Virus record (IMG/VR): IMGVR_UViG_3300034812_000685
Source of the DNA: an uncultured virus (IMG/VR IMGVR_UViG_3300034812_000685)
Lineage: Duplodnaviria; Heunggongvirae; Uroviricota; Caudoviricetes
Strand: one strand, 5' to 3'
Length of the DNA stretch: 20,000 nt
Numbering within the stretch: position 1 is the stretch's first letter; each line of letters begins with the position of its first letter. A model generated the notes under the pieces. The model saw only the letters and a program-made list of their open reading frames with translations, ran no database searches and had not been told where the DNA came from. Positions 2,941 through 20,000 of the stretch are shown here, in pieces. The translations under genes were made by a program, and so were the position numbers.

Positions 2941-3567
2941 ATGGACTCAAAGCTTTTCTGTGTGCCAGCTGCTGTAATTTTTACAATCTGCTTTTATGGC
3001 TTTGGCATTGCCAAGGTCATTTGTACAGATACAAAAAACAGAGAATTGCTCACAAAAATTAGGCCACTAGGTGACTTGATAGCTTCTGGCGAAGGTGACT
3101 ATGGTTCAGTTAATCGCGGCAGAGCAGGAGATACACCTGGAGGCCTTGAGTCCATCACTGGAAAACCACATAGTGCGACAACCATTAAAGAGATTACTGA
3201 TTTGCAACGCAATAAGATCTTTGCTGTTGGCAGGTATCAGTTCATTCCATCCACTATGCAGGTTGCACTGAAGCATTCATGCATACATAACAATGATTTA
3301 TTTACGAAAGAAACGCAAGAGAAGTTGTTTGCAGTATTGATATTTCACAAAAGGCCATTAGTAGGTGGTTACATCAAAGGTGAGCATGATGACTTGAGCC
3401 TTGCGGGCCGTGAACTTGCCAAAGAGTTTGCTGCTGTTGAATATAAATCAGGTCGCGGGTTTTATGACGGAATACACGGCAACAAAGCCAAAATAACACA
3501 GAGCCAAGTTCGCAAGGCTCTTATTCATTTGAGGAAATCTTGGCGAGTCTCTGAGGTTAAGTCATGA
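2941..3567 (+). CDS. Lysozyme-fold peptidoglycan hydrolase with N-terminal hydrophobic segment
   Basis: LIASGEGDYGSVNRG (candidate catalytic Glu), FAVGRYQFIPST, F-x3-TQEKL and LAKEFAAV motifs resemble lambda-lysozyme-like muramidases. Confidence 0.7.
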   Translation: MDSKLFCVPAAVIFTICFYGFGIAKVICTDTKNRELLTKIRPLGDLIASGEGDYGSVNRGRAGDTPGGLESITGKPHSATTIKEITDLQRNKIFAVGRYQFIPSTMQVALKHSCIHNNDLFTKETQEKLFAVLIFHKRPLVGGYIKGEHDDLSLAGRELAKEFAAVEYKSGRGFYDGIHGNKAKITQSQVRKALIHLRKSWRVSEVKS

Positions 3568-3743
3568 ACTCTGCAATCCAAGGGATTATGAAACGCTTCA
3601 TAGTTACCTATAAGATTAGTACAACAGAGGGCTTGACAGAAACAATGCTTGTCAGTAGTAAAGATATCTTTTCTGCAGTGGCAGAAGCCCAAGAGTTATT
3701 GCATCAAGATTGTGTAATTACAACCATCACAGATCATGATTGA
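3564..3743 (+). CDS. Small hypothetical protein, 59 aa (MNSAIQGIMKRFIVTYKIST...); absent from ORF track
   Basis: ATGA overlap with the upstream stop, fills the gap and overlaps the next start. Confidence 0.6.
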   Translation: MNSAIQGIMKRFIVTYKISTTEGLTETMLVSSKDIFSAVAEAQELLHQDCVITTITDHD

Positions 3744-4005
3744 CGATTCTTTTTCTCAAGTATTTGTTTTTAACTACGTGCTGTTGATGTCGGTGACAAT
3801 TTTAATAGTATTAATACCTAATGAGTTTATTAGTGTGATCACACTAGTCTATTTAAAAATTAATCTTTTCTTTTTAAATTACAAAATGAAGTGGATGGCT
3901 TGGTGTCAGTACAGGCAACTGGTACGCCTGTTAAGAAAAGCTGACTCAAAAACTATTCCCAGTTTTAAATTTGTCAACCTATGGGAGAGGAATGACAACA
4001 GTTGA
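3736..4005 (+). CDS. Hypothetical membrane protein, 89 aa
   Basis: Hydrophobic N-terminal half, basic C-terminus, operon-like packing. Confidence 0.6.
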   Translation: MIDDSFSQVFVFNYVLLMSVTILIVLIPNEFISVITLVYLKINLFFLNYKMKWMAWCQYRQLVRLLRKADSKTIPSFKFVNLWERNDNS

Positions 4006-4032
4006 TACACTTTCTTTAGATCGTGTTATTTC

Positions 4033-4176
4033 ATGTACAAGATTTCCTCCAACCATCTACATCGCGACGGCCATGTCATGGGCAAGCGCAACAAGGCAAC
4101 TTCGATCGGGAACGGTCGTCGTAAGCGCAGCTCTTTGAAAGGCAAAAAACCTTACCGGGGTCAAGGTCGCCGCTGA
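4033..4176 (+). CDS. Small highly basic phage protein, 47 aa (...KATSIGNGRRKRSSLKGKKPYRGQGRR); absent from ORF track
   Basis: Translated by hand. The C-terminal KxYRGQGR ending is one I recognise from small marine/cyanophage proteins. Confidence 0.7.
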   Translation: MYKISSNHLHRDGHVMGKRNKATSIGNGRRKRSSLKGKKPYRGQGRR

Positions 4177-4211
4177 TGGGTTGTAAACGCTGTTCACTCT
4201 GTCGAGGGACC

Positions 4212-4349
4212 ATGGCCAACTGTTTAAAGAAAACATCCGACAAACCGGAACCAAAACCTTACAAGGATCCTGCATATCGAAAGGAATACTGGAAGAAGTA
4301 TTGCGAGGAAGATCCAAGTTGCTTGGAATGCAAGTTGTTTGATCTATGA
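4212..4349 (+). CDS. CP12-like miniprotein, 45 aa, C-terminal motif only; absent from ORF track
   Basis: MANCLKKTSDKPEPKPYKDPAYRKEYWKKYCEEDPSCLECKLFDL. YC-x8-C-x-L-F-D matches the CP12 C-terminal loop. GAGGGA SD-like sequence upstream. Confidence 0.72.
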   Translation: MANCLKKTSDKPEPKPYKDPAYRKEYWKKYCEEDPSCLECKLFDL

Positions 4350-4352
4350 GCT

Positions 4353-4514
4353 ATGAAAAAGTACGAAATGTTGTACAGGTTTGGCACTGGTCCTTGGTTT
4401 GGCAGGAAGGTTATTGACGCATTAGACCTGAAGGACGCACAACAAAAATTCTATTCGGACGCCAAGCACTGGACTTTGGTGAACGTTTATGAATTGCCTG
4501 AAAAAGATGCCTGA
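4353..4514 (+). CDS. Small hypothetical protein, 53 aa (MKKYEMLYRFGTGPWFGRKVIDALDL...); absent from ORF track
   Basis: Starts 3 nt after the previous stop and fills the gap before nrdJ. Confidence 0.6.
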   Translation: MKKYEMLYRFGTGPWFGRKVIDALDLKDAQQKFYSDAKHWTLVNVYELPEKDA

Positions 4515-4582
4515 TTTAAAAGCCAAACCCCTTCTTTGCAGGTAGATTCTGTAGGCATCCTGAGCCTACCCGCATTCAATAG

Positions 4583-6904
4583 ATGAAGGAATTTCGTCAA
4601 TCAGCCCCTTCCGCCGAAGCTGTTTTCTATCGTACCTACAGCCGTCGCAAAGCTAATGGCACGAGGGAAAGCTTTTATGATGCAATGTGTCGCACTATTG
4701 ATGATATTGCAGAAATCGGCAAATTCAATCAAGAGCAGTACGACTTGGTAAGGCGTGAAGCTTTGGGCCAACGTGCATTCCCTTCTGGGCGTGCTTTCTG
4801 GGTTGCTGGTACAAAGTGGGGAAAGAAACAAGAAAACTTTTCTGGTTATTACAACTGCACGTCAACTCATATTCAAGACATTGAAGCTTTTGGGCTGCTA
4901 GTTGATCTTGCAATGATGGGATCTGGTACTGGTGCTGTGTTAGAACCAGAAGTGATTGCAAAACTGCCGACAGTAAAAAACAAGCTTGAGATTGTTTCAG
5001 TCAAGGAAATCGGAACCTTGCCAGCTGATCAGCGGCACGATAACAGTAGGATGGACACCAATTTGCCTTCTGGTGTAATCCAAATCTCCGTTGGAGACAG
5101 TCGCCATGGTTGGCAGCAGGCTTATCAAATGTTGCTAAATCTTGGTTTCTTTGGTGCTCCTAATCATGAAGGCACTATTAGGATTCATCTCGATCTTTCA
5201 AGTGTTCGGCCTTCAGGAGAGCGTTTGAAAGGTTTTGGCGGCACAGCTAATCCAGTTAAGCTTGAAGAGGCATTCCGCAAGGTTGCTGATATTTTTACTG
5301 ATGCGGTCGGCCGGCAGCTTACCTCTGTTGAAGCTTGTCTGCTGATTGACGAGGCGGCTACTGCTGTTGTGGCAGGGAACATCCGACGCAGTGCTGGTAT
5401 GCGCCAATTCGGGCAAGATGATACGGATGCCGCAACGGCAAAGCTTGGCTTGTACACACAGGACGAAGAAGGTAATTGGCGCGTAGATCCAAAAAAAGAA
5501 GCCTTGCGTATGGCAAATCACACTCGTTGCTTTCATACAAAGCCTTCACTTGAAGAAGTTACTGATGCAGTTACAAAGCAGTTTCATTCCGGTGAAGGTG
5601 CAATTCAATATGTACCGGAAGCTGTTTGCCGTGCAAATGTAGACGTTTTAAATTCTATCAAATTACGCAAGCAGTTTCTTGCTACATATACCCGACACGG
5701 GCGCAACACTGCCAAGGGTTTTCTTTTCAATACAGCTGCCATGCAGGGTGGTTGCGAGCTTGACCAACGCGAACTTGATCATCGGATGGATCGCTATGGG
5801 CTCAATCCTTGTGGTGAAATTATCGGCCGTGACTTCCACTGCAACCTTGCTGAGGTCCATCTTAATACCATTTCACCTGATAACAAAGAACAGCAAGAAG
5901 ATGCTTTCTATGCTGCTGGCCTGCAGGTCGCTGCGTTGCTCCAGCATGAATTTGTACATGAACGTTATCAGTACTCACGGGAAATTGATCCGATCGTTGG
6001 TGTCAGCTTTACCGGTTTGTTCGATTTTTTTGTTCATGCCTTTGGCAGTGAATGGCTGAAATGGATGATGGAAGGTCGCCCAGATGATGGTCGCCGGGCT
6101 GCAAAGTTCACCAGTTCGGAGCAAATGTTCCTTGCTCGTTGGCGTACTTCTGCCCGTAAAGCAGTCATCGAATACTGTAAACAGCACAATATCCGCGTAC
6201 CAAATCGGATCACCACAGTTCAACCAGCTGGTACTAAAAGTCTTTTGACGGGCGCTTCTTCCGGATGGCATCCTCCTAAAGCTCAGCGTTTTATTCGTCG
6301 GATCACCCTGGGAGTCTCTGATCCTTTGGTGCCATCTTTGATCGAGTATGGATTCAATGTGATCCCTGCTCAATCGGCACGAGATGAAGAGGGGAATCTG
6401 CTTGACGACATTTCAGACCCACGAGTACAAGAGGTGCTTGTTGAAATCCCGACTGAAGTAAGTTGGGCCAATCTCCCTGGGTGTGATCAATTTGATCTTG
6501 CAAATTTGCCTGTTGAAGCTCAATATGGTCTTTACATGCAGGTGCAAACTCACTACACGGACCACAACACTTCTGCAACAATTGAGCTGCGGGAACATGA
6601 AATCGAGACACTGTCAAAGCTGATTTATGAAACCATCCAGAAAGATGGCGGATATATTTCAGCAGCCTTGCTTGCCAGGTTTGACGCTAACGAAACGTTC
6701 CCTCGTCTTCCCTTTGAGCCAATTAGTAAGGAAAAGTATGACGACGAAGTCATCATTAATATGTTCTCTCGCGATTCTGAAAATTTTCTCAGTATTCTCA
6801 ATAAGTACGACAGCGAGGATTGGTCGATCGAATCAGTAGCAGGTTGTCAATCGGCAGCTTGTCTCGACAAGGCCGACAAAGATGAAAGGGACAAGGGTCT
6901 TTAA
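4583..6904 (+). CDS. nrdJ: Class II (adenosylcobalamin-dependent) ribonucleoside-triphosphate reductase, cyanobacterial monomeric type
   Basis: VFYRTYSRR, FPSGR, YNCTS, VVAGNIRRSA, NPCGEI (thiyl radical Cys), CNLAEVHL, TTVQPAGTKSLL, HNTSATIE and a C-terminal C-x4-C pair (CQSAAC). Confidence 0.95.
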   Translation: MKEFRQSAPSAEAVFYRTYSRRKANGTRESFYDAMCRTIDDIAEIGKFNQEQYDLVRREALGQRAFPSGRAFWVAGTKWGKKQENFSGYYNCTSTHIQDIEAFGLLVDLAMMGSGTGAVLEPEVIAKLPTVKNKLEIVSVKEIGTLPADQRHDNSRMDTNLPSGVIQISVGDSRHGWQQAYQMLLNLGFFGAPNHEGTIRIHLDLSSVRPSGERLKGFGGTANPVKLEEAFRKVADIFTDAVGRQLTSVEACLLIDEAATAVVAGNIRRSAGMRQFGQDDTDAATAKLGLYTQDEEGNWRVDPKKEALRMANHTRCFHTKPSLEEVTDAVTKQFHSGEGAIQYVPEAVCRANVDVLNSIKLRKQFLATYTRHGRNTAKGFLFNTAAMQGGCELDQRELDHRMDRYGLNPCGEIIGRDFHCNLAEVHLNTISPDNKEQQEDAFYAAGLQVAALLQHEFVHERYQYSREIDPIVGVSFTGLFDFFVHAFGSEWLKWMMEGRPDDGRRAAKFTSSEQMFLARWRTSARKAVIEYCKQHNIRVPNRITTVQPAGTKSLLTGASSGWHPPKAQRFIRRITLGVSDPLVPSLIEYGFNVIPAQSARDEEGNLLDDISDPRVQEVLVEIPTEVSWANLPGCDQFDLANLPVEAQYGLYMQVQTHYTDHNTSATIELREHEIETLSKLIYETIQKDGGYISAALLARFDANETFPRLPFEPISKEKYDDEVIINMFSRDSENFLSILNKYDSEDWSIESVAGCQSAACLDKADKDERDKGL

Positions 6905-6916
6905 AATGAGGTAAAC

Positions 6917-6941
6917 AAGGCCCGAAAGGGCCTTTTCTTTT
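6917..6941 (+). terminator. Rho-independent terminator after nrdJ
   Basis: AAGGCCC-GAAA-GGGCCTT stem with GNRA loop followed by TTCTTTT. Confidence 0.85.
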
Positions 6942-6949
6942 AGGTAGCC

Positions 6950-7195
6950 ATGCCCTGGAATGCACTGCATGTAAACGAAATTGACTATCCAGATAACCCA
7001 GAGTTGCAACAGGCTTTGGACAATTTCAGGCAACAGTATTCATGGTATGAATCACAGCTAAAATGCAATAGGTACAGCATTGATCTCACTGTTGTGCAAA
7101 CGGCTTGGGACAACTATCTGAGACTAAGGAATCGCTATGACTACAATCGTCGATCATCAAATCCGTCAGCTCTCAAGGGATCTCGGTCTCGTTGA
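6950..7195 (+). CDS. Hypothetical protein, 81 aa
   Basis: ORF with AGGTAG upstream, fills the gap and overlaps the dcd start. Confidence 0.55.
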   Translation: MPWNALHVNEIDYPDNPELQQALDNFRQQYSWYESQLKCNRYSIDLTVVQTAWDNYLRLRNRYDYNRRSSNPSALKGSRSR

Positions 7196-7637
7196 GCCAT
7201 TTAACCCTGAGATGGTCAACCCGGCCTCTATAGATGTTACCCTTGGTTCGCAGATCAAAGTAGAGAACCAGGAAGGTGGTTGGCGTGATGTAGATATTTC
7301 CAGGTATGGCTACGCGATGGCCCCCGGCCAGTTTGTTCTGGCACATACGGAAGAGCTGATAAGGGTACCTAACAATATGAAATGTCAGTTTCTGCTTAAG
7401 TCGTCTCGTGGGCGCGAAGGATATCAGCATGCACTCGCAACATTCTGTGATCCTGGTTTTGTTGGTCAGGTGACACTCGAGCTGACAAACCTTCGCAGGT
7501 ATCAATCATTGCCCCTGAGAAAAGGCCTGCGGATCGGTCAGTTGATGTTTTCTAAGTTGGATGAAATCCCTATGCGTTCTTATGCGGTCACCGGCAGGTA
7601 TCAAAACGATATGGGTGCGCAAATCTCAAAAGGTTAA
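7137..7637 (+). CDS. dcd: dCTP deaminase
   Basis: VEPFNPEMVNPASIDVTLG, PGQFVLAHTEE, KSSRGREG, DPGFVGQVTLELTN, RIGQLMF, GRYQ. Confidence 0.92.
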   Translation: MTTIVDHQIRQLSRDLGLVEPFNPEMVNPASIDVTLGSQIKVENQEGGWRDVDISRYGYAMAPGQFVLAHTEELIRVPNNMKCQFLLKSSRGREGYQHALATFCDPGFVGQVTLELTNLRRYQSLPLRKGLRIGQLMFSKLDEIPMRSYAVTGRYQNDMGAQISKG

Positions 7638-7785: not shown

Positions 7786-9303
7786 ATGCACGGAATCTCT
7801 CATCCGACCAATGATCCAACACTGGTCTCTTATCACAGGCCAGAACTTTTACGTCTTTTGCCACAACTAGAGCAGGCTAACGATTGCTTTTGCCTGTTAA
7901 ATACTGAAAGTCTTGGATCTGCTAAGCATAAATACCTGCACCGAGAGCCGGCGGAACCAGAACCTGCATATGCTGCCAGACTGGGTAGATCTACTTATAC
8001 GCCTATTTATAGAGATTCAATTCGTTCTTACGCTGGGCTGCTCAGTCGGTTCCAGGTTATTGACGGACCGCAAAGCCTGACCGAAAACACTGACAATGTG
8101 GATCTGCAAGGCTCAAGCCTTCAGACATTTATGACCATGGCCGATGAGATGGCGCTGCGGGATGGCGGTACCTACATCATGGTCGACATGATGCCTGACA
8201 ACGGAGCTGATAACTTCTTTGATCAGATGAGTGACGGGCGTCATCCGTACTTTATTTCGATCAAACGTGCTGATGTAATCAACTGGAGTGTGTCCTATGA
8301 GCGCGGTATTGAATCTGTTGACCAGGTAACAATTCGTCAACTCAAGTCGACTCAATCCACCGAAGGCCAATTTGGAGTTAACGTTGAGCCGATTTATTAT
8401 GTGCTGACACCCGGTAAAGTCGAAACATATCGACTAGTGAAGACGGCCGCACGTCGTTACGAAAATCAAAAGATCGACGAAATCACAACCAGCCTGCCAA
8501 TTGTTCCCCTTGTTTACTACGGAGCTACGACGACTCGGTTTGCTCAGGGCGATTTACCAATGGATGGCTTAGCTGATCTGAGCATTCAGCATTATCAAAT
8601 GCGTTCCGACCTGGCGGAGCTGCTACATAAATGCGCCATGCCTGTACCTGTAAGAAAAGGTGCTCCTGTTGGGACTGATGGCCGCCCTGCACCCCTCGTG
8701 CTTGGCCCTAACACTGCTGTGGACCTTCCGGCAGAAGGTGGTGACTTCGGTTTCTCAGAGCCGTCCGGTCGTTCACTGGAACGCCATCAGAGCGAGATAG
8801 AACACATTGAGAAGTTGATGGATCGCAGTTCTTTGAACTTCTTGTATGGAGCAAATGTTAAGACCGCGACAGAAGCTTCTCTTCGTGCTTCGCAAATCGC
8901 CTCAAGTGTTTCTGCTTTAGTCCGCAATAAAACGTCGATGTTCGGGACCTTGATGCGTCTGTGGGCCTGGTATGCGGGAGAGCAAGCTTCGATCACAAAG
9001 GAGTCCGGCATTCATGTCAATGATTCACTCATTAACAAGCCTCTAGGAGCCTCTGAGATGGCCCAATTAGTGAATCTGTACTCACAGGGTCTTATGTCCC
9101 GTTTGACGGTCTTACAGGAGCTTCAGAGGGGCGGTGCGCTTGATCCTGACCTATTCATTGATGAAGAGATCGAAAGGATCAAGGAAGACAAAGAAGAGAA
9201 GATGGCAGAAATGCCCCAAATGATGCCTGCAGAAGAGCCAGAACAGGAAGAAGAAGTGACTGAGCAGGAAAGGGTCGAACAGGCGGCAAAAGTTGCTCAG
9301 TAA
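7786..9303 (+). CDS. Phage portal protein (DUF4055-type)
   Basis: 505 aa. KYLHREPAEP...YAARLGRS, NVDLQGSSL, RHPYF...DVINW, LADLSIQHYQMRSDLAELLHKCAMP, KTATEA, G-x-MSRLTVLQELQRGG and acidic tail. Confidence 0.85.
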   Translation: MHGISHPTNDPTLVSYHRPELLRLLPQLEQANDCFCLLNTESLGSAKHKYLHREPAEPEPAYAARLGRSTYTPIYRDSIRSYAGLLSRFQVIDGPQSLTENTDNVDLQGSSLQTFMTMADEMALRDGGTYIMVDMMPDNGADNFFDQMSDGRHPYFISIKRADVINWSVSYERGIESVDQVTIRQLKSTQSTEGQFGVNVEPIYYVLTPGKVETYRLVKTAARRYENQKIDEITTSLPIVPLVYYGATTTRFAQGDLPMDGLADLSIQHYQMRSDLAELLHKCAMPVPVRKGAPVGTDGRPAPLVLGPNTAVDLPAEGGDFGFSEPSGRSLERHQSEIEHIEKLMDRSSLNFLYGANVKTATEASLRASQIASSVSALVRNKTSMFGTLMRLWAWYAGEQASITKESGIHVNDSLINKPLGASEMAQLVNLYSQGLMSRLTVLQELQRGGALDPDLFIDEEIERIKEDKEEKMAEMPQMMPAEEPEQEEEVTEQERVEQAAKVAQ

Positions 9304-9347
9304 AAATTATGTGCGAGCTAAACTGTTTGTATGCGTGATCACGAAAA

Positions 9348-9569
9348 ATGCAATTCGACCCCGATAACAACGTAATCGTCAGGTTTCAGTTCAAAGAAGA
9401 TCGTGCAAGCGAATTCAGTGAAGATGGCAACTGCATTATCGAACAACAGTTCGACGACTTAGATGACGTCATTGAGTATTGCCGTGAATTTGAAGATGCG
9501 TTGCAAAACGTAACAGTGCTATTTGCCGAAGAAATCATCCAGTTGACTGATTTTAATATTGAATCTTGA
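9348..9569 (+). CDS. Very acidic small hypothetical protein, 73 aa
   Basis: 20 D/E versus 4 K/R by hand count. Confidence 0.7.
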   Translation: MQFDPDNNVIVRFQFKEDRASEFSEDGNCIIEQQFDDLDDVIEYCREFEDALQNVTVLFAEEIIQLTDFNIES

Positions 9570-9570
9570 T

Positions 9571-9711
9571 TTGGCACAAGTCACCACTCAGATTGAGTAC
9601 TACTCTCTAGCTGTCAACTTTATTTTCACCACCCTTTTGCTTCCGTTGGCAGTATTAATTGGGCTCTGCCTTTGTGTTTGCCTTTACAGGAACAAAGACT
9701 ATTTTCTTTAA
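9571..9711 (+). CDS. Small single-TM peptide, 46 aa (TTG start); absent from ORF track
   Basis: MAQVTTQIEYYSLAVNFIFTTLLLPLAVLIGLCLCVCLYRNKDYFL. Starts 1 nt after the previous stop, TAATG overlap with the next gene. Confidence 0.5.
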   Translation: MAQVTTQIEYYSLAVNFIFTTLLLPLAVLIGLCLCVCLYRNKDYFL

Positions 9712-10040
9712 TGATCTACGAAGCTGGCAAACGCATCAAATCTCCTGGTGGCTCATTTGTTTATGAAGTCATCGGCCCCATCTGCAGGCTTTATGACAGA
9801 GAGGGGTTGCCATGGCCGTCATGCTCCCTACAATGGAAAGGCAAACAACCCTCATGGCGACGGATAGGCAGACGTCTGATCCCAGACATTGCCGCTCAAC
9901 GCTGTCCCAGCTACCAAGTAGTAGGGGTTGACTCTACGGGCACCCGTTGGGAGCAGCCCTTGACCTTGTACTCACACCGTCTTTCTCGGATTGAGAAGGA
10001 ATGGTGGTACAGCAAGATCAAGCCCAATGACAAACACTAA
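9711..10040 (+). CDS. Hypothetical protein (start revised to ATG9711)
   Basis: TAATG coupling. Trp/Pro/Cys-containing globular sequence (RLYDREGLPWPSCSLQWKGKQPSWRRIG). Confidence 0.7.
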   Translation: MIYEAGKRIKSPGGSFVYEVIGPICRLYDREGLPWPSCSLQWKGKQPSWRRIGRRLIPDIAAQRCPSYQVVGVDSTGTRWEQPLTLYSHRLSRIEKEWWYSKIKPNDKH

Positions 10041-10191
10041 CAAACGGAGTTCATCCCTTGATTGGAATCAATTTTTCAAAGATCGTCCCGACCTTGAGCC
10101 ACCTGGTTACAGGGAGACAGTCCAACGCATCAATGCACGGAAAGCCGAAAACGATGCTGAGGGCCTGCGAAATCCTGGCGGACCACATTGA
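10027..10191 (+). CDS. Small hypothetical phage protein (start ATG10027)
   Basis: DWNQFFKDRPDLEPPGYRETV motif recognised from small cyanophage proteins. Confidence 0.65.
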   Translation: MTNTNKRSSSLDWNQFFKDRPDLEPPGYRETVQRINARKAENDAEGLRNPGGPH

Positions 10192-16096: not shown

Positions 16097-16273
16097 ATGC
16101 AAAAAGACGAAGACATCCCGCTCATACATCCTCGAATGGCCGAGTTGTATGCAGCCAAGCATCCAAAGACTGAAGAACAGTTGTTGTTTCCAAGAAGAAA
16201 ACCTTCAAGGAACTATCGCCTCAAACGTGGTGCTTTTGCCCGCTTCATTCAATCACAACGGGACGCTTCCTGA
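16097..16273 (+). CDS. Small basic hypothetical protein, 58 aa; absent from ORF track
   Basis: MQKDEDIPLIHPRMAELYAAKHPK...; TGATG coupling to the next gene. Confidence 0.6.
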   Translation: MQKDEDIPLIHPRMAELYAAKHPKTEEQLLFPRRKPSRNYRLKRGAFARFIQSQRDAS

Positions 16274-16452
16274 TGAATCTGTACGTCACAAAAACCGGTC
16301 GCCCAAGGACTCGTCTTTTTCCGCCAGAAAAAGTTGTATTGATCCGGCAAATGTATACGGATGGTTGCTCGATGGCCGAACTTGCTAGGCTATTTGGTGT
16401 TAGTTCAAATACTATCAGGCAATACGTTAACGAACCCTTGAGCCAAATGTAA
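16273..16452 (+). CDS. Stand-alone Hin/resolvase-type helix-turn-helix protein, 59 aa; absent from ORF track
   Basis: TGRPRTRLFPPEKVVLIRQMYTDGCSMAELARLFGVSSNTIRQYV: GRPR arm plus 3-helix HTH. Confidence 0.8.
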   Translation: MNLYVTKTGRPRTRLFPPEKVVLIRQMYTDGCSMAELARLFGVSSNTIRQYVNEPLSQM

Positions 16453-18048: not shown

Positions 18049-18072
18049 TAGAATATCAATGCGAGGACACGG

Positions 18073-18098
18073 GGACCCTATCATGGGTCCTTTTTTTT
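18073..18098 (+). terminator. Rho-independent terminator
   Basis: GGACCC-TATCAT-GGGTCC followed by T8. Confidence 0.8.
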
Positions 18099-18280: not shown

Positions 18281-18301
18281 AAAAGCGTTGAGGGGACGCA
18301 G

Positions 18302-18333
18302 TAGGGACCCTACCCAGGGTCTCTATTTTTTTT
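18302..18333 (+). terminator. Rho-independent terminator
   Basis: TAGGGACCCT-ACCC-AGGGTCTCTA followed by T8. Confidence 0.8.
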
Positions 18334-18344
18334 ACCTGTTCGCA

Positions 18345-18512
18345 ATGACAATTTTTACAGTTTGTTGGCGCGATGATTCAAGTGAAAAACGATACGTGTT
18401 GATCGAATCTCCCTCGGCACAAGAAGCCCGCCTCGAAGCAATGAATCGAGAAAAATATATTGCCCAGCATCCAAATTGTATTATTTACATCATGCCGGGT
18501 ATCTACAAATAA
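18345..18512 (+). CDS. Small hypothetical protein (start ATG18345)
   Basis: MTIFTVCWRDD...IESPSAQEARLEAM...YIAQHPNCI. Confidence 0.65.
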   Translation: MTIFTVCWRDDSSEKRYVLIESPSAQEARLEAMNREKYIAQHPNCIIYIMPGIYK

Positions 18513-18514
18513 TT

Positions 18515-18709
18515 TTATGCAGCTGCTGGTCCTTCTTCATTCGTAGGCTCTACTTGTGGAAGCTCCACCAGGTCATATCGATTTAACATATTAGATAGGT
18601 TTTCTTGAGCAAATCGCCTCAAGATTTCATCTCCACTAACTTCAGCACAAGCAAAAGATTTAATCAATTTAACCAATACCTCTTTCGGACTGACTGCCTG
18701 TTCGGTCAT
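18515..18709 (-). CDS. Small hypothetical phage protein, 64 aa
   Basis: LVKLIKSFACAEVSGDEILRRFA helical pattern; convergent, with the stop 2 nt from the + gene stop. Confidence 0.65.
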   Translation of the reverse strand: MTEQAVSPKEVLVKLIKSFACAEVSGDEILRRFAQENLSNMLNRYDLVELPQVEPTNEEGPAAA

Positions 18710-18802
18710 AGATCAAATCAAAATAATTGCCCCATAAGATACCAATTTAATTTTTTTAGGTTTTATTTTTTTATTTTTTTTATTTTTTTCTCCCTTTTCT
18801 TC

Positions 18803-18882
18803 GATTGTCATTTTGATGATCCAAAACCCATTTATGGGATCCAAAACCCATTTACGGGATTCAGGATTGTCATTTTGATGAT
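18803..18882. repeat. Nested direct repeats: 18-bp GATTGTCATTTTGATGAT x2 flanking tandem 20-bp GATCCAAAACCCATTTA(T/C)GG x2
   Basis: 18803-18820 equals 18865-18882; 18818-18837 versus 18838-18857 has 1 mismatch. Confidence 0.9.
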
Positions 18883-19343
18883 TCTCATACTTAATATATA
18901 TAATAAATACATGTAATACCTATTAACAAACCTTAGTATTCATTTATAAATAAATAACCTATAGGTATTTAAGGCCGACAGATCTGGTTACGCCAGTAGG
19001 GTTTGTTACGTGTTGTTTCTGGTCTTATTAGTTGTTCTGATGGCAAAAGGTACAAATACTTAAGTAGTTTATATATTTGGGATTCTGATGGATGGTGATG
19101 TGGCCTGGATTTTGATGGCGGCACCTAACGTCCTCTCTAAGGTATCTGTACGGCCCGTGAAGGCCTCTTTGCCCCCTTTTAGGTATCTCTGGGTGGTCAG
19201 CGGATTTCAGGCCCCTTCCAGGCGATTCTGAGGGGAGCGTAGATTGTGATTTTTTGTAATGTAAATTTTTATTAAAAATACCCTTGTGATAGTGAGGGTG
19301 GGTGGGTGGCCTCCAGGTCCTGGCCTGGCCCCTCGATCCTGGG

Positions 19344-19485
19344 TAGTACATTTGCACTACTGGTAATGAGAATCATTCTCACTAGTACAGGTGTACTATT
19401 TTGCAATTGAGACTCATTCGCAATAAGCAGGCAAAAAAATACCTAGTACGGGTGTACTAGGCAGGCAGGTAGTGCGTTTGTTCTA
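19344..19485. promoter_or_regulatory. Array of four LexA-box-like and two Fur-box-like palindromes
   Basis: TAGTAC-N4-GTACTA type at 19344-59, 19383-98, 19444-59 and 19470-85; TGAGAAT-N-ATTCTCA type at 19367-81 and 19408-22. Confidence 0.75.
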
Positions 19486-19665
19486 GCGCAATTCGTGGTT
19501 CTCAAGGTGTGAATAAACTGACGGCCGATCGGTGAATCTGTAGTCAGCAAATCCGGCGTTGTCGAGTTTATCGTAGGCAGATTTTATATCATCCGCTTTT
19601 ACATAAACTAGGTGCTTGTCTCTCCAATCGATGTGCATGGAAGCGGTGAAAGTAAACCAGTTCAT
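19483..19665 (-). CDS. Small hypothetical protein, 60 aa
   Basis: VYVKADDIKSAYDKL pattern; GGAGA SD; ATGA coupling. Confidence 0.7.
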   Translation of the reverse strand: MNWFTFTASMHIDWRDKHLVYVKADDIKSAYDKLDNAGFADYRFTDRPSVYSHLENHELR

Positions 19666-19787
19666 TCGTAGTCTCCGTCGATTTGTGAAAGGAAATCATA
19701 GAAATCATTCGGCCACATTTCGATGGCTAAAGTACATCTGAACAGGTCGAAAGCAAAAGGAACAGCAATCATGAAAGAATCGTGCAT
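19662..19787 (-). CDS. Small hypothetical protein, 41 aa; absent from ORF track
   Basis: MHDSFMIAVPFAFDLFRCTLAIEMWPNDFYDFLSQIDGDYE; stop overlaps the next ATG (ATGA). Confidence 0.55.
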   Translation of the reverse strand: MHDSFMIAVPFAFDLFRCTLAIEMWPNDFYDFLSQIDGDYE

Positions 19788-19816
19788 TTTTTTTGTTGGA
19801 AAATGTTTTTTATGTT

Positions 19817-19930
19817 TTAGTTTTTATTTATTTCATTCCATTTCTTTTCATTCCGTAGGATCGCTCGATAGGACCCTTGTTGATACGTCCAGCCAGCAGA
19901 CAAGACTAAGGCGAAGAGTAAGAAGAACAT
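19817..19930 (-). CDS. Small membrane peptide, 37 aa; absent from ORF track
   Basis: MFFLLFALVLSAGWTYQQGSYRAILRNEKKWNEINKN. Confidence 0.5.
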   Translation of the reverse strand: MFFLLFALVLSAGWTYQQGSYRAILRNEKKWNEINKN

Positions 19931-19938
19931 GATAGATA

Positions 19939-19956
19939 GGGGGGAAGAATCCCCCC
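19939..19956. other. Intergenic GC hairpin
   Basis: GGGGGGA-AGAA-TCCCCCC between minus-strand ORFs. Confidence 0.55.
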
Positions 19957-20000
19957 GGTTTGCATCATTGGCGACCCATCATTTTGTCGTCTATGAACTG

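Follow-up and report, generated by a model that had tools for sequence, protein, structure and literature searches.

The window, a 20,000-nt stretch of DNA from an uncultured virus, carries a terminase end and genes for a sigma factor, a primase, a ribonucleotide reductase, a dCTP deaminase, a portal and a cyanophage outer-membrane-like protein. The portal shares 76–79% identity with the portals of S-CRES1-3 and S-CBS2, which infect Synechococcus, and we assign the window to an S-CBS2/S-CRES-like Synechococcus siphovirus. Its last plus-strand gene stops at 18512 and is followed, in this order, by a minus-strand 64-aa ORF, a T-rich tract, tandem repeats and AT-rich DNA, a block conserved with S-CRES3, a short motif that we call element C and an array of palindromic boxes (Table 1). 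The small minus-strand genes beyond the array point toward it, and S-CRES3 shows the same order. The tandem-repeat/AT-rich layout is also found in S-CRES1 and S-CRES3, but the repeat units differ. Two hairpins of similar sequence (GGGACCC...GGGTC, each with a T tail) are located 232 nt apart within the last plus-strand genes (18071–18098 and 18300–18330), and positions 16273–16452 encode a 59-aa helix-turn-helix protein, a possible binder of phage-specific repeats.

The 60-aa ORF next to the array falls into neither a PHROG nor a Pfam family; in the ESM Atlas it matched nothing but unnamed viral clusters, all below 0.9, and as a locus query it returned no loci. Similarly, blastn with window positions 18500–20000 against GenBank phages found no match, and neither an exact 22-nt scan nor a pattern search with the conserved block returned any loci. 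The hemagglutinin-like gene as query gave one locus, which stops short of the array.

Table 1. The array and the features surrounding it in the window
Feature	Position	Strand	Remarks
64-aa ORF	18515..18709	-	nearest gene start directed away from the array, 635 nt from A1
18–20-nt tandem repeats, then AT-rich DNA	18803..18960		origin-like or packaging-like
Non-coding block	19135..19190		conserved with S-CRES3
Two HLR1 (RpaB)-like sites, weak	19243..19275	-	3 and 2 mismatches
Element C	19286..19295	-	oriented; its sequence in the direction leading away from the early block is CACTATCAC; could be a -10 element, a site for a protein or a mark for packaging
A1	19344..19359		cyanobacterial LexA-type box, 1 mismatch
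B1	19361..19381		perfect 7-1-7 Fur-type core at 19367–19381 (0 mismatches), extended upstream to a 21-nt two-dimer-type box
A2	19383..19398		perfect LexA-type box, 0 mismatches; gap to B1 of 1 nt
B2	19408..19422		Fur-type box, 2 mismatches; ends in a GCAAT variant also present in Synechocystis sites
Terminator-like hairpin of the early operon	19440..19463	-	A3 forms its stem
A3	19444..19459		perfect LexA-type box, 0 mismatches
A4	19470..19485		LexA-type box, 2 mismatches; includes the stop codon of the ORF 19483–19665
60-aa ORF	19483..19665	-	final gene of the small-gene block; GGAG ahead of ATG; coupled to the upstream ORF
Single DnaA-box-like nonamer, weak	19508..19516	-	within the 60-aa ORF
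41-aa ORF	19662..19787	-	homologue in the early block of L183, 76% identical
37-aa ORF	19817..19930	-	probable early gene; homologue search empty

The 142 nt at 19344–19485 hold four LexA-type A sites and two Fur-type B sites, scored against TAGTAC-N4-GTACTA and TGAGAAT-N-ATTCTCA respectively. An earlier reading of the letters alone (hereafter the sequence-only reading) had listed these six sites, and all are present where it had placed them; its statement that A2 and A3 match RGTACNNNDGTWCB exactly also proved right. A further, weak A-like site that it had reported at 19731–19744 carries 4 mismatches in 12 positions, lies inside the 41-aa ORF and does not appear among the window matches at up to 3 mismatches, so it does not rise above chance. 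Four A sites with up to 2 mismatches within 150 nt occurred in none of 500 simulated windows, and the simulated means per 20 kb were 0.24 A sites and 0.14 B sites (first-order Markov model built on the window). The motif was picked after the data had been seen, and it recurs in 52 independent arrays elsewhere; the frequency of the array is far above chance. No sigma-70-like promoter was found at the array in the window and no gene starts near it, in line with the view that the array has no target gene here. The best Rfam hit at the array had an E-value of 0.96, so that no ncRNA match stood above chance, and a structured RNA, considered for a folding z-score of -4.8, was rejected since palindromes fold well by construction.

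We then compared the boxes with published operators. The A logo (163 sites) reads TAGTACA-nn-TGTACTA, in which positions 7 and 10, left free by the scan, are A/T at 0.68. The accessible text of Kolowrat 2010 (PMC2921402) gives the Prochlorococcus LexA consensus before recA, lexA, umuC and umuD as TAGTACA-N2-TGTACTA, that is, the same 16-nt motif including positions 7 and 10. A2 fits this picocyanobacterial consensus at 14 of 14 positions, and A1, A3 and A4 have its core with 0–2 mismatches. Because of the published consensus and the logo match at positions that the scan had left free, identification of the A sites as picocyanobacterial LexA-type boxes is supported by sequence.

The B logo (102 sites) shows A/T-rich flanks that had not been selected for and resembles Synechocystis Fur sites, for which the consulted tables (S2, S3 and S5) of Riediger 2021 (PMC8634477) give a 7-1-7 core with A/T-rich flanks in strains 6803 and 6714. 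B1 shares 12 of 15 core positions with the Fur sites of TU32 and TU689, in a by-eye comparison whose reference is Synechocystis and not marine Synechococcus; compared with the Synechocystis sites in those tables, the phage sites are more perfectly symmetric. The Zur box, a 23-nt RegPrecise consensus with an ATGAT-N-ATCAT core as quoted in the accessible part of PMC9337993 (see also PMC3323870, likewise in part), is perfect in none of the 52 arrays, yet one mismatch away in 30. Fur is thus preferred over Zur for these Fur-type sites, as a candidate, with PerR and Zur as other candidate binders. Consensus, logo and the Synechocystis comparison by eye therefore bear out, at the level of sequence, the LexA and Fur-family identities first proposed. 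No LexA or Fur domain encoded by the phages was detected in five of five carriers.

Other host motifs were scored around the arrays. HLR1-like sites, defined as in the consulted part of PMC6525291, which mentions HLR1/RpaB occurrences in lytic cyanophages, lie near 30 of the 52 arrays at 1.18 per kb against 0.21 per kb, an enrichment inflated by a background of mostly coding DNA. DnaA-like boxes occur within 400 nt of 8 of the 52 arrays and are enriched over a likewise mostly coding background; NtcA- and Pho-like motifs were not enriched. We also observed a further 16-nt palindrome in S-CBS2-like phages, TAGGYA-N4-TRCCTA, which occurs as many as 7 times, within arrays and next to early promoters (L014 9961–10146 and 12060, L039 10333–10979, L172 and L077); its binder is possibly phage-encoded.

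Searches with the joint A and B pattern returned 34 IMG/VR stretches, 109 metagenome stretches (80 of them examined) and a single array among 185,579 prokaryote genomes. This last one (L046) lies on a 7.7-kb contig of a Luminiphilus MAG and is probably a mis-binned phage fragment. Together, 116 loci, with the window and S-CRES3 included, reduced to 52 independent arrays with 163 A and 102 B sites, counts that are selected for A adjoining B. Similar arrays thus recur in relatives, where the sequence-only reading had suggested looking for them. An array holds up to 17 A and 5 B sites, with a median of 4.5 sites, and packing is tight: 69 of 213 neighbouring sites are separated by no more than 1 nt, 38 of 78 A–A pairs abut exactly, and the median cover is 62%. 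Carriers belong to at least four lineages, namely S-CBS2-like and S-CBS4-like phages, P-RSP2-like podoviruses (terminase 86% identical) and a primase/VapE group that has no close cultured relative and whose host is unproven. Among cultured phages, S-CRES3 carries both box types and P-RSP2 carries Fur-type pairs.

An unbiased rate was sought with S-CBS2-like loci found through a structural gene, 80 of 137 being examined. Sixty-six of these had less than 5 kb upstream; removal of three query-related loci and one duplicate from the other 14 left 10 distinct loci with at least 5 kb. Arrays were present in five and absent from five, one of the latter being S-CBS2, whose record ends in this region. 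At up to one mismatch, no A site was found in S-CRES1, S-CBS2 or P-SS2, the last of which has no array, and no full array was found in P-SSP7, S-CBP2, S-SRP01, Syn5, S-TIP28, S-SBP1, S-CBP1 or S-RIP2 (for four of them, the early region only was covered). The array is a widespread but optional feature and, since close relatives do without it, accessory or replaceable. In S-CRES1, the early block (L001 32285–32900) spans only about 0.6 kb in the orientation opposite to that of S-CRES3; it is flanked by repeated GTGAAC...CACGATCA elements and has HLR1-like but no LexA or Fur boxes. The GenBank label ‘SAM hydrolase’ of S-CRES1 gp62 is unsupported by Pfam, which gives DUF3574.

In relatives, the arrays bracket a 2–4.6 kb block of small genes. 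The array in the window sits after the last gene of this block and includes its terminator, and the second border array is known from the relatives. A GP88, DUF7227 or DUF7178 gene lies 0.1–2.5 kb from 33 of the 52 arrays, the larger array being upstream of this marker gene in 24 and downstream in nine. Of the 16 loci with enough DNA, 11 have a second site past the marker gene and 2 have one on the opposite side. Site density was 0.31 per kb at 1.6–3.0 kb and fell to zero in 86.7 kb of sequence at 6.5–10 kb. The cultured phages behave likewise: all four A sites of S-CRES3 (up to one mismatch, 71 kb) flank a small-gene block of 2.9 kb, at its two borders, and four of the six B sites of P-RSP2 are at borders, two B pairs bracketing four small genes. 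The sequence-only reading had placed the array at the 3' end of a minus-strand operon; the twin arrays round the early block and the parallel with the T5 injection stop had escaped it.

The small-gene block is most likely the part of the genome that enters the cell first, because homologues of the marker genes sit at left ends or at duplicated ends of other phages. The P-SSP7 homologue, gp1, is encoded at 1079–1816 of a linear, terminally repeated record, others lie near the record starts of S-CBP2, CRP-1, ICBM2 and P12053L, and they occur twice in A3Wally, Cece, Pumpernickel and XacN1. As a separate observation, a C-run boundary motif is conserved ahead of the early block in S-CBS2-like phages (L039 11143–11200, L001 about 32900, L014 about 12080 and many of the loci found through the structural gene); many contigs end 35–330 nt past this motif, not at one base.

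One locus, L183, shows the arrangement in multiple copies. Four tandem modules, 1–1.6 kb apart, occupy 3505–7530, three of them full (terminator, LexA/Fur array and element C) and one partial. Each module but the last precedes a small-gene block, and each early block has its own promoter-like sequence 130–300 nt beyond the array, as judged by eye. The module is thus copied as a unit, a finding that none of the readings of the array fits perfectly, and the arrangement suggests module-mediated shuffling of early genes.

A low-stringency blastn search with one array as query gave matches in T5-like phages, at 9.1–9.9 kb of the terminal repeat. The injection stop signal (iss) of T5 is annotated at 9140–10149 in NC_005859.1, with coordinates that shift by as much as about 75 nt from one T5 sequence to another. 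Past a terminator, it holds a LexA box (9409), DnaA boxes, boxes of the Fur type (9554–9707) and tandem repeats. The 9409 box and its right-repeat copy are the only E. coli-type LexA matches (up to 2 mismatches) in 121,750 nt, and phage MM-1 shows the same exclusivity. All six B matches of T5 lie in the terminal repeats, the reversed-pattern control giving 2. No E. coli-type LexA box was found in S-CRES3 and no cyanobacterial one in T5. Since the T5 box is of the E. coli type and the cyanophage boxes are of the cyanobacterial type, the LexA motif in the arrays follows the host. T5 (L048) also has a perfect classical Fur core at 233–247, in dmp close to its left end of the genome; another core of the LexA type, at 6211–6230, lies between divergent pre-early promoters. 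Fur-type clusters were seen in long non-coding stretches of ICP1 (L049 712–792) and Muenster (L050 786–901), with no E. coli-type LexA box near; in Muenster the cluster is inside the annotated terminal repeat, ahead of the first gene.

The likeness to the T5 iss has several components. Both consist of non-coding DNA rich in repeats that follows the last early gene and its terminator; two arrays surround 2–4 kb of small early genes; and boxes for host proteins are followed by phage-specific tandem repeats in T5 and cyanophages alike. The window itself has non-coding repeats directly after the last operon of the DNA that, judged from the homologues, would enter first. The two differ in that T5 has one strong E. 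coli-type LexA box where the cyanophages have several cyanobacterial ones, and in that the DnaA pairs of T5 stand in conserved inverted repeats, whereas no such pairs were found here and the window has one DnaA-like nonamer. The 10-kb repeat, two-step entry and A1/A2 of T5 are established; on the cyanophage side the likeness is one of sequence layout. In the consulted part of Davison (10.1101/866236), T5 is described with two DnaA-box arrays 1.85–4.26 kb apart (Repeat Region 3, at the iss, and Repeat Region 2 upstream of it) and a calculated shear point at about 9618. The accessible texts of this paper and of three from 2023–2026 (PMC10644984, 10.64898/2026.04.02.716235 and PMC13250531) describe only DnaA boxes at the T5 iss, with no mention of Fur or LexA, and two of the latter three call the T5 pause mechanism untested or poorly understood. 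In the open-access texts searched, there is no report of LexA/Fur arrays at early-block borders of lytic phages.

The reading that we favour, with a probability of roughly 40%, is that the array serves as a landing place for host proteins and acts physically on the incoming DNA, as an entry brake or a roadblock. Abundant host LexA, a Fur-family repressor and probably RpaB and DnaA too would land at the downstream border of the first-entering block, their dimers binding as the early-block DNA reaches the cytoplasm. The resulting protein block would brake or anchor DNA entry and stop read-through by host RNA polymerase until early phage proteins have acted, and the array would correspond, in cyanophages, to the repeats found at the T5 injection stop. 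DNA damage leads to cleavage of LexA, and Fur depends on its metal, so such a block would presumably be weaker in stressed cells. We favour a physical block over a logic gate or a sponge because the repressor sites lie edge to edge, the border is fixed and there is no clear overlap with promoters (sigma-70-like overlap in 19 of 52 arrays, against 24% in shuffles). Several observations weigh against it: S-CRES1 has no A site at up to one mismatch, and the eight other cyanopodoviruses named above show no full array in the parts covered; five of the ten distinct S-CBS2-like loci are array-free; contig depth and contig ends gave no consistent position for the termini; most of the larger arrays near a marker gene are upstream of the early genes, not downstream; L183 carries the module four times, and a single stop signal needs no such repeats; and downstream arrays have an oriented candidate -10 beside them. 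The roles proposed for the array are not mutually exclusive.

This last element underlies the strongest rival, a tentative possibility in which the boxes are operators upstream of an outward promoter whose -10 is element C (CACTAT, 19289–19294, minus strand). Such a gate would fire away from the early block, toward the origin-like repeats in the window and toward the next gene block in podoviruses, so that DNA damage and low iron would allow replication to be primed or middle genes to be expressed. Element C (consensus YACKATCAC, often in tandem with 11–18 nt spacing; seen in the window, L039, L161, L031, L183 and L185) is common to S-CBS2-like siphoviruses and P-RSP2-like podoviruses, both of which have phrog_38-type terminases. 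It lies within 70 nt outside 15 of the 52 arrays, against 0.46 expected, and in the same orientation in all 15; it accompanies eight of nine downstream arrays and none of the 24 upstream ones. In P-RSP2-like phages it stands 60–105 nt before the next gene and 3–15 nt from a LexA box, which is a repression geometry, and the HLR1-like sites come after it. Also consistent with a gate, S-CBP42 (L043 6778–6845) has three A sites directly upstream of its T7-like RNA polymerase gene; these look like ordinary regulation and are candidates for SOS control of the polymerase. (A loose and weak resemblance to element C, over 6–10 nt, is seen at the very start of the P-SSP7, S-SBP1 and Syn5 records.) The geometry of the window, however, is unfavourable: element C is 50 nt from A1, has no -35 and is 579 nt from the next gene. 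Moreover, the upstream arrays have no element C, up to 17 A sites per array exceed what repression needs, and the HLR1 counts were set against mostly coding DNA. The tyrosine integrase domain PF00589 was found in none of five carriers (two cultured, one 100% complete), leaving no clear prophage switch. A gate had already figured in the sequence-only reading; it has gained an oriented candidate -10 element and is weakened in the window by the missing -35 and the distant gene.

It is unlikely that the block is a terminal repeat of 2–4.6 kb with twin arrays just inside the ends, where host proteins would shield the DNA from exonucleases or DNA-end sensors. Such an end cap, the third proposal of the sequence-only reading, would account for arrays at both borders beside lineage-specific tandem repeats, for the T5 right-repeat copy 0.5–0.8 kb from the right end, for the Fur-type cluster in the Muenster terminal repeat and for two half-sites in the first 80 nt of Syn5. 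The ‘complete’ records of S-CBS2 (L002/L003) and S-CBS4 (L160) both stop where the array or early block should begin, that of S-CBS4 inside a gene and about 7 kb short relative to L028. These stops are either true ends or cloning gaps, and the records may be incomplete. Against an end cap, no doubling of depth was seen at the arrays: Logan contigs from four runs, two of which may be the source of the window, show no consistent step (X1, 24 then 31.9; X2, 15.1 then 13; X3, 5.6 then 7.7–8.0; X4 noisy). Nor was a fixed contig end seen, with 19 of 114 ends near an array against 11.6 expected, a weak clustering explained by repeats. A 2-kb terminal repeat would also be unusual for T7-like podoviruses.

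Rather improbable is a sponge, in which phage genomes, as they replicate, draw off LexA and Fur and thereby derepress repair and iron uptake in the host. The sites are numerous and of consensus grade, their number varies between relatives and some relatives dispense with them, as a sponge would allow; S-CRES3 is annotated with repair genes and ribonucleotide reductase, and the window encodes the latter. Still, a sponge could sit anywhere, whereas the sites are restricted to the early-block borders, and the median array is small. In T5, host DNA is degraded early according to the accessible sources, which would make derepression useless there. A pure sponge, the first proposal of the sequence-only reading, thus does not explain the fixed position. 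Finally, it is very unlikely that the palindromes are terminators, RNA hairpins or phage-protein sites: A3 is part of a terminator-like hairpin, the folding score is low and the window encodes a small helix-turn-helix protein, but a T run is near just 7 of 163 A sites, Rfam and folding offer nothing beyond what palindromes give anyway, siphoviruses and podoviruses whose terminases differ share both motifs, and the LexA motif switches with host phylum.

Host-regulator sites on phage DNA have precedents from which the arrays differ. In GIL01 and similar temperate phages, host LexA boxes overlap the lytic promoter of the prophage; host LexA sites on phage DNA are common to both cases, and here no gene start is near and no tyrosine integrase was found. 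Pho and NtcA sites occur in lytic cyanophages, where the known host-regulator sites are single operators at promoters of defined genes, in contrast to the mixed arrays bordering an early block described here. Compared with picocyanobacterial SOS operators, the phage boxes are multiple, abutting and mixed with Fur-type sites; they lie downstream of an operon, and the phage that carries them apparently does not integrate.

What the analysis adds is a marine census across lineages, cultured carriers and non-carriers, a LexA motif that switches to match the host, and element C. A more general proposal, which we hold to be doubtful, is that lytic phages as unrelated as T5 and the sipho- and podoviruses of cyanobacteria have independently arrived at a DNA device free of phage protein, in which arrays of host-repressor sites at the edge of the first-entering DNA let LexA and Fur pause or anchor genome entry. 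If this is true, entry and takeover would be gated by the DNA-damage and iron state of the host, and the host factors so long sought for the T5 injection stop would be LexA and Fur. The shared layout and the host-matched LexA motif in cultured cyanophages (S-CRES3, with Fur-type pairs in P-RSP2) provide named candidates for the host factor of the T5 pause and, together with natural pairs with and without the array (S-CRES3 versus S-CRES1), open this question to direct tests. Should the sites serve as signals, infection by these marine phages would be tied to UV damage and iron limitation, two main stresses of picocyanobacteria, and the motif pair may mark early blocks and likely hosts in uncultured phages.
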